Assembly (NCBI GenBank): GCA_963813715.1
Contig: CAWFAK010000016.1
Span: 192,001-256,000 of the forward strand
Direction of reading: 5' to 3'
Source: an uncultured Planctomycetaceae bacterium
Lineage (GTDB): Bacteria; Planctomycetota; Planctomycetia; Planctomycetales; Planctomycetaceae
Length of the DNA: 64,000 nucleotides
Shown in pieces: positions 47,942 to 51,792 of the stretch. The notes beneath the pieces are model-generated. The model was not told the DNA's origin. It did not search any database and saw only the letters and a program-made list of their open reading frames with translations. The position numbers were made by a program, and so were the translations under genes. Position 1 is the stretch's first letter. Each line of letters opens with the position of its first letter.

Positions 47942-48748
47942 GTGTCGGCGTTTCGCAAAAGCGTGAGTTCTTTGCGTGCGACCCGCTGTTCGGTTGCGCT
48001 CGCTGCTGCCTGTGTCGCGCTTTGGCTGCCGGGCTGCGCGTGGAGCGAGAAGATCAAGGTCGCGGGCGACGGGTCGCCCGAGTATCAGAATCTGCAGATC
48101 ACTTACGACCTGGCATCAACACCGGATTTGCAGCGTCTCGACCAGCCCGCGCCGATCGTGCAAACCTCGAATGTCGACTCGAAGACTGACTCGGCAACCG
48201 CTGCTCCGACAACGCGCCCCTGGACGAAGCGGCGCGTGCACCTCGAGCTGCAATATCCGTATCCGGGCGTGCATCCTGCCTTCGCGCGGGCCACGCTTCG
48301 CATTGTGTCGGACGTGAAGATCAGCAAACCTGTCCAGCCGCCGGCCGTCGTGGAGTGGAAGGACGCGTTCTCGGGAACGCCCGTCACCTACTCGCAACAC
48401 AGCCCGTCCGGCATGTCGGCGCCTCAGCCGATGACGAAGCCGGAACCGATCGCGCCGCCCGCCAACCTGCCGCCGGAAGAGCAAGAAGAACTGGCCGCCA
48501 CCGAAGAGGTGCTCTACATCGACCTGCCGAAAACGGAGATCGACGCCCTGCTCCGCGAGCTGGCCAAAGAAGACTTCTTCAAGGCCCCCAGCAATCCCGA
48601 CGGCCAATCGCACGTGTTGGTCGTGGTGAATAAGGGCCGCTGCGAAAAGGGCTGGTCACGCGACGAACAGCTCGATCGGCTTGTGGAACTGCTGCGACGA
48701 CACGGCGCGCCTCTGCCGGCGACGGCGCTCGAAGCGAAAAATTCCTAA
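47942..48748 (+). CDS. hypothetical lipoprotein
   Basis: Signal peptide ending LPGC; Pro-rich insertions. Confidence 0.7.
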   Translation: MSAFRKSVSSLRATRCSVALAAACVALWLPGCAWSEKIKVAGDGSPEYQNLQITYDLASTPDLQRLDQPAPIVQTSNVDSKTDSATAAPTTRPWTKRRVHLELQYPYPGVHPAFARATLRIVSDVKISKPVQPPAVVEWKDAFSGTPVTYSQHSPSGMSAPQPMTKPEPIAPPANLPPEEQEELAATEEVLYIDLPKTEIDALLRELAKEDFFKAPSNPDGQSHVLVVVNKGRCEKGWSRDEQLDRLVELLRRHGAPLPATALEAKNS

Positions 48749-48787
48749 CGCCGCAAGAGTCGTGATGCGGCTGGGCGAGTGCGACTG

Positions 48788-49801
48788 TCAGAGCGTGCGG
48801 CCCAGCGCCGTGGCTACCTTGCGGCACTCTTCCATCACCTTGCCAAAGGCCGCCGGCGTGATCGACTGATCGCCGTCACTGAGGGCCGCATGCGGATCCG
48901 GGTGGACTTCCAAGAGTAGCCCGTCGCATCCAACCGCCACGGCGGCCAGCGACATGGGCGAAATCAGCGAGGCGATGCCGGTCCCGTGGCTCGGATCGAC
49001 GACGACCGGCAGGTGCGTTCGCTCGTGCAGATAGGGAACGGTGGCCAGCGGCAGCGTGAAGCGGGTGTGAGTCTCGAAGGTGCGGATGCCCCGCTCGCAG
49101 AGGACAACCTGGTTGTTGCCCTGGTCAAGCACGTATTCGGCGGCGAGCAAGAACTCGTCGATCGTGGCGGCCGGTCCGCGCTTGAGGAGCACCGGCTTCT
49201 TGGTCTCTCCGACCGCTTGCAGCAGGTGATAGTTCTGCATGTTGCGGGCGCCGATCTGCAGCACGTCGGCATACTGGCAGACCAGGTCGACGTGCTGGGG
49301 CGTCATCACCTCGGTGACGACGGCCAGGCCCGTCGCTTTGCGAGCGGCTGCCAGCATCTTCAGCCCCTCTTCCTTGAGTCCCTGGAACGAATAAGGGCTC
49401 GTGCGGGGCTTGAAGGCTCCGCCACGCAGGCCCTTAGCGCCGTACTTCTTGACGGCGATCGCGGACTCCATGATCTGTTCTTCGCTCTCAACCGAGCAGG
49501 GGCCGGCGATGATGCCGATCGAGCCGCAGCCAATCGCCAAATCGAGGGCCCGGACTTGCGTGGGCTCGGGCTTGGCTTCCCGGCTAGCCACCTTGTAAGG
49601 GGCAAGGATCGGAACCACCTTCTCGACCTCCTCGTACGAGGAAAGCACTTCGACGGCTCCATCCCGTTTCGCACCGATTGCCGCAATCACGGTCCGCTCC
49701 GTTCCGACCAGGACGTGCGCTTTCAGGCCCATCGATTCGACGCGTTTGACCATCCGCTGGACCATGTCCTTCGTTGCCGTACTCTTCATCACCACGATCA
49801 T
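48788..49801 (-). CDS. aroF: DAHP synthase (type I-beta, N-terminal regulatory domain)
   Basis: MIVVMK..., [36 protein letters not shown]; start ATG 49801. Confidence 0.95.
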
Positions 49802-49888
49802 GGGCGGGCTTTCCGATGCAAATTGAAGGCCGACGGGACGGCGTTCGCGAACTGCTGAGACGTCGATCTCTGTTTGGCGATGCCTCAG

Positions 49889-49929
49889 GAACAAGAAAGC
49901 CCTGAAACCGACTGGGATTTCAGGGCCTT
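49889..49929 (-). terminator. intrinsic terminator (attenuator) in the aroF leader
   Basis: AAGGCCCTGAAATC-CCAGTC-GGTTTCAGGGCTTT: 14-bp stem followed by CTTGTT. Confidence 0.85.
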
Positions 49930-49954
49930 GGAGTGTTTTCTTTTATGGCTGGAA

Positions 49955-50023
49955 TTAGTTGCCAACGTACTCCGAGAGCCCCGCCTCGCAGGCGCTAAAC
50001 CAATAAAAGTGGAAGCGGGACAT
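49955..50023 (-). CDS. aromatic-amino-acid leader peptide MSRFHFYWFSACEAGLSEYVGN
   Basis: Five aromatic codons within codons 4-9; lies between the promoter and the terminator upstream of aroF. Confidence 0.82.
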   Translation of the reverse strand: MSRFHFYWFSACEAGLSEYVGN

Positions 50024-50056
50024 TTTCGTTCCAGTGGCTGGCTGATTATTTACCCG

Positions 50057-50085
50057 ATGATAAACACCGCGCTTTGGGCGGTCAA
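50057..50085 (-). promoter_or_regulatory. sigma70-type promoter of leader-aroF
   Basis: TTGACC-N17-TATCAT, 34 nt upstream of the leader ATG. Confidence 0.75.
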
Positions 50086-50267
50086 TCTTCCGCTTTCGTT
50101 CAAGTCCCCGCATTTGACGGACCCGGTCCGATTGGAGCGCGTCGCGCGGCTGTAGCGATTTTCCGGTCAATAAGTGGTCGACAATCGACCCGGTTCACCG
50201 CGAAGCAGGTGCCGAAGCTGCGCACGAGCCCTCATTCCCTGCTCACGGTTGTCGTTGCGCTAGCCGC

Positions 50268-50876
50268 TTAACGGCCGAGGAACGACACAACCTGGCCGAC
50301 GTCCACCGGCAAGCTGATGTCGGTCGCGCCGGGGAGTGACGTCACAATCGCCTTGAGGCTGGCCGGCTCGAAGGAAATCCAGTCGCAGCGGGACGCGGTG
50401 CCCGATTCGACCGCCGCTTGGTAAACGGCCTGCAAGTTCGGCCGGTTGCGAACGGTGATCACGTCGCCGGCATTCACGACGATCGACGGCGTGGCGACGG
50501 TGCGGCCGTTCACCTGAAAATGGCTGTGCACGATCCCCTGCCGAGCCTGGGGACGCGTGTGCACGAAGCCGGCGCGGCGGATCACATTGTCGAGCCGCCG
50601 TTCGCACAAGAGCATCAGCGTTTGCCCGGTGTTGCCCTTGGTCTTGCGGGCTAGCTCGAAGTAACGGCGGAGCTGGGCTTCACGGATGCCGTAATAGTGT
50701 TTGATCTTCTGCTTTTCGGCGAAAGCGGCCCCGTAGGTCGAAAACTTCTTGCGCCGGCCGTACATGCCGGGCGGAGTTTCGCGACGCTCATAGGCGCGGA
50801 CGGCCCCTGTGCTTTCGTAGACCATTGCAGCCAAGCGGCGGTTCACCCGCCCCTTCGGCCCCGTATGCCGACCCAT
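50268..50876 (-). CDS. rpsD: 30S ribosomal protein S4 (no Zn-binding Cys motif)
   Basis: TGPKGR, EKQKIKHYYG, ERRLDNVI, RPQARQGIVHSH. Confidence 0.95.
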   Translation of the reverse strand: MGRHTGPKGRVNRRLAAMVYESTGAVRAYERRETPPGMYGRRKKFSTYGAAFAEKQKIKHYYGIREAQLRRYFELARKTKGNTGQTLMLLCERRLDNVIRRAGFVHTRPQARQGIVHSHFQVNGRTVATPSIVVNAGDVITVRNRPNLQAVYQAAVESGTASRCDWISFEPASLKAIVTSLPGATDISLPVDVGQVVSFLGR

Positions 50877-51003
50877 GCCGACCTTCCTTCCCCGAATTCA
50901 CCCGTCTCGAAAAGTTGCGAAACGCCAAATTTAGAGAGCCCCGGCCGCAGTTGCAAGGGCAGGACCGGGGTCAAAACGGCCGGCGGGAACTACAATCCTC
51001 GCC

Positions 51004-51792
51004 ATGAACCTCATCGACACCCACGTCCACCTGGACGAAGAGGCGTTCCGCCCCGATCGTGACGAAGTCGTCGCCCGGGCCGCCGCGGCCGGCGTCGTCT
51101 CGATGATCACCATCGGAATCACTGCCGCCACCAGCCGTGCGGCCGTCGAACTAGCCCAGTCGTCCCCCTCGGTCTACGCCGCGGTTGCCATTCAGCCAAA
51201 CTACGTCTCGCAAGCCGCCCCCGGTGACTGGGAACTGATTCAGGAACTGGCGACACAGCCCAAGGTCGTGGCCGTGGGCGAAACGGGCCTCGATCGCTAT
51301 TGGGACTACGCCCCATTCGACCTGCAAGTCGAGTTCTTTGACAAGCATCTCGAGCTGGCGAAACGGCTCGATCTGCCGTTCATCGTCCACTGCCGGGAGG
51401 CCGAGAGCGACGTCGTCGCCCAATTGCGGCGGGCGGCCGGAGGGGGCCAATTGCGGGGCGTGATGCATTCGTTTGCGGGGGACGCCGAAACCGCCCGTGC
51501 GTGCCTCGAGCTGGGGATGTACATCTCGTTCGCCGGCATGGTGACCTTCAAAAAGAACGATGCCCTGCGAGGCGTCGCCGCCGAAGTGCCACTCGACCGG
51601 CTGCTGGTCGAGACCGACGCTCCCTATCTGGCGCCTACTCCCTTTCGCGGTAAGCGAAACGAGCCCGCGTACGTCCGGAACACGGCCGAGACCCTGGCCT
51701 CCGTCCGCAACCTGAGTCTCGACGAGATCGCCCGGGTCACGACCGAGAACGCCCGACGGCTGTTCGGTCTGCCAGAGCCACGAACGCAGTAA
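51004..51792 (+). CDS. tatD: TatD-family hydrolase/DNase
   Basis: DTHVHL, GETGLD, VHCRE, MHSF, ETDAPYL. Confidence 0.92.
   Translation: MNLIDTHVHLDEEAFRPDRDEVVARAAAAGVVSMITIGITAATSRAAVELAQSSPSVYAAVAIQPNYVSQAAPGDWELIQELATQPKVVAVGETGLDRYWDYAPFDLQVEFFDKHLELAKRLDLPFIVHCREAESDVVAQLRRAAGGGQLRGVMHSFAGDAETARACLELGMYISFAGMVTFKKNDALRGVAAEVPLDRLLVETDAPYLAPTPFRGKRNEPAYVRNTAETLASVRNLSLDEIARVTTENARRLFGLPEPRTQ

Follow-up and report, generated by a model that had tools for sequence, protein, structure and literature searches.

A probable leader-peptide attenuator carrying Phe, Tyr and Trp codons upstream of DAHP synthase in Planctomycetota

Introduction

How might a planctomycete adjust entry into the shikimate pathway to its supply of aromatic amino acids? 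The question is raised by a short reading frame rich in aromatic codons, followed by a hairpin, which lies upstream of a DAHP synthase (aroF) gene in an uncultured Planctomycetaceae bacterium. The window analyzed here is a stretch of 64,000 nucleotides (assembly GCA_963813715.1, contig CAWFAK010000016.1, positions 192,001 to 256,000 of the forward strand), and coordinates given without a prefix are positions within it. An original prediction, made from the letters of the window, had proposed that these elements form a transcription attenuator of the trpL/pheL type, with Phe, Tyr and Trp codons read before DAHP synthase. Comparison with relatives strongly supported this attenuation logic. Judging from sequence and its conservation, we consider the element, with a probability of about 0.8, to be a transcription attenuator of the leader-peptide kind, through which DAHP synthase expression most likely follows how far the tRNAs for Phe, Tyr and Trp are charged.

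Organization of the leader and its gene

Followed along the minus strand from rpsD to the DAHP synthase gene, the locus presents a promoter-like site, a leader ORF, and a hairpin with its U-tract, and then 94 nt before the ATG of the gene. The features are as follows.

50876-50268, minus strand: rpsD (ribosomal protein S4), the gene upstream of the leader
50085-50057, minus strand: promoter-like site TTGACC-N17-TATCAT (-35 box 50085-50080, 17-nt spacer, -10 box 50062-50057)
50023-49955, minus strand: leader ORF, 22 codons and TAA, MSRFHFYWFSACEAGLSEYVGN, from translation
50021-50010, minus strand: segment 1 (codons 1-4), which pairs with 49990-49978 in minimum-energy folds
50014-49997, minus strand: putative control codons 4-9, TTC CAC TTT TAT TGG TTT (F H F Y W F), from translation
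49984-49968, minus strand: segment 2, the putative antiterminator 5′ strand, in the 3′ part of the leader ORF and ending about 10 nt before the stop codon
49935-49920, minus strand: segment 3, the putative antiterminator 3′ strand, made of 5 nt before the terminator and nt 1-10 of its 14-nt 5′ arm
49929-49896, minus strand: intrinsic terminator hairpin (5′ arm 49929-49916, loop 49915-49910, 3′ arm 49909-49896)
49898-49889, minus strand: interrupted U-rich tract UUUCUUGUU, the first three U of which also close the stem
49801-48788, minus strand: DAHP synthase gene, type I-beta (ATG at 49801, stop at 48788), 337 aa with an N-terminal regulatory extension

The positions originally assigned to the promoter, the ORF, the terminator, and the quoted RNA segments were exact when rechecked on the sequence, and the leader ORF with its FHFYWF run was confirmed by translation. 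The gene had been named as DAHP synthase, and its product indeed matched the NCBIfam model NF006421 (3-deoxy-7-phosphoheptulonate synthase) over its whole length with 486.9 bits, well above the cut-off of 335. Since the next ORF downstream sits on the opposite strand, the gene is considered to be monocistronic. The 171-nt leader RNA showed a folding z-score of -3.47 against dinucleotide shuffles.

Short ORFs of this kind are rare in the genome. On both strands of its 7.49 Mb, we found 10 ATG-started ORFs of 8-60 aa that carry at least five aromatic residues in six, which corresponds to 0.00067 per kb per strand, and the leader at 50023-49955 is the only one of the 10 that is joined by a strong terminator and a downstream biosynthetic gene. 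The same genome encodes a second I-beta DAHP synthase (G000:C17:689709-690725, minus strand), 48% identical to the first, and its upstream spacer of about 115 nt holds neither an aromatic ORF nor a terminator. The attenuator is carried by only one of the two I-beta isozymes of this genome.

Attenuators of enterobacterial pheL and trpL are represented in Rfam by the families Phe_leader and Trp_leader. A cmscan search of positions 49000-51000 with E values up to 10 returned no meaningful Rfam family, T-box, Phe_leader and Trp_leader included, and the two matches that were obtained were at chance level: a miRNA model on the hairpin only (E = 0.15) and D12-methyl (E = 0.71).

Occurrence of the leader in other Planctomycetota

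The original prediction had suggested comparing aroF upstream regions across the phylum. Every related genome searched (41 of 41) encodes an orthologous DAHP synthase, and 30 of these loci were retrieved. An aromatic upstream ORF and a terminator precede the orthologue in 24 of these 30 genomes, which were sampled from the class. The carriers fall into four families: f1, with each of the 11 loci from the window's genus as well as further genera, and f3, f7, and f9. Leader and terminator were missing at the remaining six loci (L012, L018, L024, L027, L028, and L029), which counts against the attenuator reading.

A search of named genomes added 80 Planctomycetota loci, giving 110 in all. A looser automatic count, in which some genomes were counted twice, placed a leader and a terminator at 85 of the 110. 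A stricter pass yielded 79 non-redundant cases, from which L060, L070, L078, L081, and L091 were left out as having a mis-assigned hairpin or ORF, leaving the 74 relatives used below; a proper match to covariance model R2 was found in L060, L070, L078, and L091. Cultured carriers include Thalassoglobus neptunius KOR42 (L069) and Planctomicrobium sp. SH661 (L064).

The region was then turned into a covariance model (R1), which was run over 151 Planctomycetota genomes at E ≤ 0.001. Matches came from 39 genomes, among them 6 of 6 additional f1 genomes, and an I-beta DAHP synthase adjoins the match at 11 of 29 fetched loci. In four further families the element lies directly before an I-beta DAHP synthase gene, with the leader runs WGWYFAYYFTF, FFTFGYWF, WKFFYFVF, and WFWFAYF (L122, L129, L130, and L141, respectively). 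At another locus (L124:1501-1612, minus strand, genome G105), a leader with the run FYFGYSYFGW and a terminator directly precede a DAHP synthase of type I-alpha (TIGR00034, 459.6 bits), so that this control logic is also attached to the second class of DAHP synthase, in a different family of the phylum. A Phe-only leader (FFFFSNF) and a terminator were found before one multi-domain open frame at L128:3-1624 (minus strand, genome G054). Its domains are chorismate mutase (8-85), prephenate dehydratase (98-373), and the start of an I-beta DAHP synthase (401-495), which runs off the locus, and the frame may be a three-domain fusion. The remaining, weaker R1 matches were mostly plain terminators.

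In the window's own genome, R1 also matched a Leu-rich leader (LLLNLLLIL, in an ORF of 21 codons) with a terminator before leuA (G000:C16:140088-139954, minus strand; L112), some 52 kb away from the window. This leader has a promoter-like site of its own (TTGACC...TAGACT), and the gene product was identified as 2-isopropylmalate synthase (NF002086, 735.9 bits). A third match in this genome, C8:189773-189874, was rejected, being a plain terminator without a leader. Genome-wide scans for leaders, whether aromatic or of any residue, were noisy, and the aroF and leuA leaders alone stood out among the matches listed.

Control codons and the amino acids they may sense

Phe was present in the aromatic runs of all 74 leaders, Trp in 73, and Tyr in 69, with all three found together in 68. 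A leader run holds on average 2.9 F, 1.8 W, and 1.3 Y, and the order and number of these residues vary freely (FYWF, FYFWF, WWWRFFYF, and YFWQFFTYF, among others). Leader peptides range from 18 to 61 aa (median 35) and are unconserved outside the aromatic run, save where RNA pairing dictates their sequence. The stop codon, by comparison, lies 17-36 nt before the hairpin in 73 of the 74 (median 25.5 nt; 25 nt in the window). Judged by codon content, it is plausible that all three aromatic amino acids are sensed.

Codon content alone cannot show which amino acids are sensed, since the Phe-Tyr-Phe leader of aroR-aroF in Corynebacterium glutamicum responds to Phe limitation and not to Tyr availability, according to the passages of PMC11802643 that treat this operon. 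The planctomycete element might likewise be a genuine attenuator that senses one or two aromatics, for example Phe alone, and carries the other aromatic codons as tolerated passengers. F is indeed the commonest residue of the runs, and the related element at L128 has F as its only aromatic residue. However, W and Y have been kept in nearly every leader while the rest of the peptide has not, and their retention is hard to explain if Phe alone is sensed; we consider such partial sensing unlikely, though it retains a real share of the probability.

The aromatic codons of the 74 runs mostly end in U. TTT accounts for 178 of 214 Phe codons and TTC for 36, and TAT accounts for 70 of 97 Tyr codons and TAC for 27, compared with 29% TTT and 33% TAT in long open frames of this 63% G+C genome. 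The bias could come from rare-codon tuning or from a constraint at the RNA level. The latter would suit a switch read by a protein, an uncharged tRNA, or a small ligand, with the aromatic ORF arising as a by-product of a U-rich RNA motif. Under that explanation, however, it would be difficult to see why F, Y, and W differ in order and in number between leaders while the reading frame, the start, and the distance from stop codon to terminator are kept. The lack of an Rfam match, T-box included, also argues against it, as does the Leu-codon leader before leuA in the same genome, which obeys the same cognate-codon logic. We regard a reader other than the ribosome as highly improbable.

Promoter and gene order

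The promoter claimed at TTGACC-N17-TATCAT is present. It matches 10 of 12 consensus positions and is the sole such site in 48500-51200, where shuffled sequences gave a mean of 0.3, and the leader transcript is predicted to start near 50050. A similar site (TTGAC-N17-20-TAnnnT, within 150 nt upstream of the leader start) was found in 57 of the 74 relatives, the background rate in the genome being 0.0026 per 150 nt, and a promoter-like site between terminator and gene was found in 0 of 74. The 80 nt upstream of the -35 box (50086-50170, minus strand) also looked conserved within the genus by eye, and could hold a regulator site or reflect mere low divergence.

The gene rpsD is adjacent upstream in 15 of the 110 loci, all from the window's genus, and the fetched flank lacks it at 64 of the 74 loci with a leader; the element is therefore assigned to the DAHP synthase gene. 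Although a weak 5-pair stem inside the promoter is the only other terminator-like site in the interval from the rpsD stop (50268) to the hairpin, we reject the alternative raised with the original prediction, that the hairpin merely terminates rpsD while the small ORF is a matter of chance and DAHP synthase is transcribed independently from its own downstream promoter, and give it almost no chance in view of this synteny, the position of the promoter-like sites before the leader and not after the terminator, and the rate at which such ORFs arise by chance. In the window's genus, transcription reading through from rpsD may also end at the leader hairpin.

Terminator and antiterminator

A terminator of 14 bp with a U-rich tail had been claimed, and this was borne out. 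The window hairpin has 14 pairs, 6 of them G-C, and a folding energy of -20.7 kcal/mol; the median among the 74 relatives is -24 kcal/mol. In a MAFFT alignment of 73 sequences, 92.9% of the cells at the stem are paired, 14 of 14 pairs change on both sides, and 0 of 500 shuffles reached this level of pairing, showing that the hairpin covaries strongly across relatives. The U-tract is interrupted in the window, which counts against the attenuator reading.

The antiterminator, proposed as 49981-49969 pairing with 49934-49923, was essentially recovered and slightly extended, to 49983-49969 with 49934-49921. In the window this duplex has a dG of -21.4 kcal/mol (z = -4.0). For a test in each relative separately, the region running from the final aromatic codon to a point just short of the hairpin was paired with the terminator 5′ arm. 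The resulting duplexes had a mean energy of -20.2 kcal/mol and a mean z of -2.66 against dinucleotide shuffles, and 73% of them fell below -1.64. Pairing was also specific to the cognate arm, with -16.8 kcal/mol for a sequence's own terminator arm versus -14.0 kcal/mol for 55 other distinct arms, a value that 0 of 10,000 permutations reached.

When the register was fixed, 68.8% of antiterminator cells were paired in the MAFFT alignment versus 65.2% in shuffles. An alignment fitted to the antiterminator model gave 70.0% versus 65.9% in shuffles and 65.3% after a slide of +1. Changes on both sides were observed in 48 cells of the fitted alignment versus 19.6 expected, and were spread over 6 of 13 antiterminator pairs, no more than in shuffles. 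RNAalifold applied to the MAFFT alignment ending before the 3′ arm gave no consensus structure (energy 0); the subfamilies use different registers. The putative antiterminator is supported by the per-sequence energies and the cognate test, and only moderately by fixed-register counts.

Segment 2 almost copies the terminator 3′ arm in many relatives, which accounts for the peptide endings, such as PGFRA or GISGPG, that keep recurring. At one antiterminator position, 63 of 78 sequences fail to pair (alignment A3, columns 32/130; about 49982 versus 49922 in the window), and in many relatives the copy of the 3′ arm is complete except at that one base. Such a single non-pairing base would keep the antiterminator weaker than the terminator.

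A third helix had also been proposed, in which the control-codon segment 50009-49998 pairs with 49950-49940 and excludes the antiterminator. It can form in the window (-9.0 kcal/mol) but was found in no minimum-energy fold, and it is not conserved: in a test of the genus that left out the near-identical L002, it was absent in 9 other members (z between -0.6 and +1.3), and there was no enrichment across the 74 relatives (mean z -0.24). We therefore rejected it as a conserved element. The helix between 50021-50010 and 49990-49978, referred to as the 1:2 helix, is a candidate for the anti-antiterminator role in this window only. Its duplex energy in the window is -22.0 kcal/mol (z = -1.9), and across 72 relatives it showed no enrichment (mean z -0.36, with 10 below -1.64). 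A 1:2 helix conserved across the planctomycete family was not found.

Switching of the leader and proposed mechanism

The response of the leader to a ribosome was modeled by folding the window transcript up to the terminator loop with a 29-nt ribosome footprint masked, as simple equilibrium folds. The 1:2 helix formed and the antiterminator did not when no ribosome was placed, the antiterminator formed when the A site was on codons 4-8, and there was no antiterminator with the ribosome on the stop codon. Masking the control codons or the stop region, a check put forward with the original prediction, thus made the window leader switch as the classical model requires.

Family-wide results were mixed. 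Among the 74 relatives, the antiterminator was present in 68 stalled folds, in 59 folds without a ribosome, and in 46 folds with a footprint on the stop codon, and 22 relatives were switch-like by footprint masking alone. A terminating ribosome probably blocks the antiterminator sterically, as suggested by the fixed, short distance between stop codon and hairpin. Because switching is mixed in the family, we take the conserved core to consist of the promoter, the aromatic ORF, the antiterminator, and the terminator.

In the mechanism that we propose, RNA polymerase would start near 50050 and a ribosome would load on the leader ORF while transcription is still under way. A shortage of aromatic aminoacyl-tRNAs would halt the ribosome on codons 4-9, where it would cover segment 1 (50021-50010) and free segment 2 (49984-49968). 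The free segment 2 could then pair with 49935-49920 and occupy the first 10 nt of the terminator arm, allowing read-through into the gene. If the tRNAs are charged, the ribosome would reach the stop codon (49957-49955) and cover segment 2 or separate it sterically from segment 3; with the two segments kept apart, the 14-pair terminator would fold, bringing transcription to an end near 49890. In an untranslated leader, segments 1 and 2 would be paired to each other, again with termination as the outcome, a step that applies to this window only.

Metatranscriptomes were also considered, and parts of the stretch occur in 23 runs. Two studies yielded contigs, X1 (49185-50091) and X2 (49229-50151), that bridge the leader, the terminator, and the start of the gene. 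In the same runs, all 30 bins of a 19.9 kb stretch of the window are covered at similar low depth. Given such even, low coverage over about 20 kb, which may stem from DNA carry-over or pervasive signal, the bridging contigs are indistinguishable from DNA, and they show neither transcript ends nor strand. The X1 contig, a single one of low depth, ends at 50091, 6 nt upstream of the -35 box, which is a fragment end. The 23 letters beyond that position in it look like sequencing adapter.

Implications for regulation in Planctomycetota

The original prediction knew of no description of such an element in Planctomycetota, and our search of the literature on attenuation and leader peptides in Planctomycetes and Planctomycetota agrees, as the element was not found described there; the 2010 survey of Lopatovskaya and colleagues may predict attenuators in further phyla. 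One paper (PMC4833913) gives only statistics of leader genes near structural genes in Planctomycetes. The attenuator is apparently unpublished for this phylum and uncatalogued in Rfam.

If confirmed, these findings would mean that classical ribosome-mediated attenuation operates in Planctomycetota, at both aroF and leuA of one genome, and would add an RNA family of at least 70 sequences that stands outside Rfam. The leader would also provide a simple annotation rule for the regulated DAHP synthase isozyme. A leader with codons for three amino acids at the first step of a branched pathway would amount to multivalent control by one sensor.

On account of the unusual cell plan of Planctomycetota, it was at one time argued by some that these bacteria keep transcription and translation apart. 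Since attenuation needs a ribosome close behind the polymerase, the element bears on transcription-translation coupling in the phylum. It is possible, at somewhat less than even odds in our estimate, that a single uncatalogued family of RNA plus peptide gates entry into the shikimate pathway across Planctomycetota and reads the charging of three tRNAs at once, by way of rare Phe and Tyr codons that end in U and are tuned for stalling, in which case its conservation would be genetic evidence for tight coupling.

Comparison with known attenuators

The mechanism is textbook, and a DAHP synthase attenuator counterpart is already known in Corynebacterium (Actinobacteria). The aroR-aroF leader-peptide attenuator of C. 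glutamicum was reportedly described by Neshat and colleagues in 2014. As the relevant passages of PMC11802643 present it, aroR-aroF shares with the planctomycete element a short ORF of aromatic codons before DAHP synthase, and ribosome stalling there raises transcription. In contrast to aroR, which has no Trp in those passages and belongs to another phylum, most planctomycete leaders combine F, Y, and W. On the basis of that description, the resemblance between the two is one of function only.

Enterobacterial pheL-pheA and trpL-trpEDCBA, whose attenuation is summarized in part of PMC11802643, likewise combine cognate control codons with a mutually exclusive antiterminator and terminator, and the position of the ribosome is the signal. 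Unlike them, the window gave no match to their covariance models, its gene acts at the common first step instead of a terminal branch, its control codons mix three amino acids, and its 1:2 pause or anti-antiterminator hairpin is unconserved. Alternative hairpins have been predicted for aroA(I-beta) > tyrA of Thermus thermophilus and aroA(I-alpha) > tyrA of Vibrio in Merino's database, as tabulated in passages and Table 7 of PMC1173090. These entries also place a terminator and antiterminator pair ahead of DAHP synthase, the I-beta type included; they concern other phyla, and the passages in question mention no Planctomycetes.

The leuA leader of the same genome differs in its Leu codons and in the gene that follows. 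It resembles the aroF leader in its promoter-like site, its ORF of cognate codons, and a similar terminator stem of the CCCUGAGA type, all directly before a biosynthetic gene.
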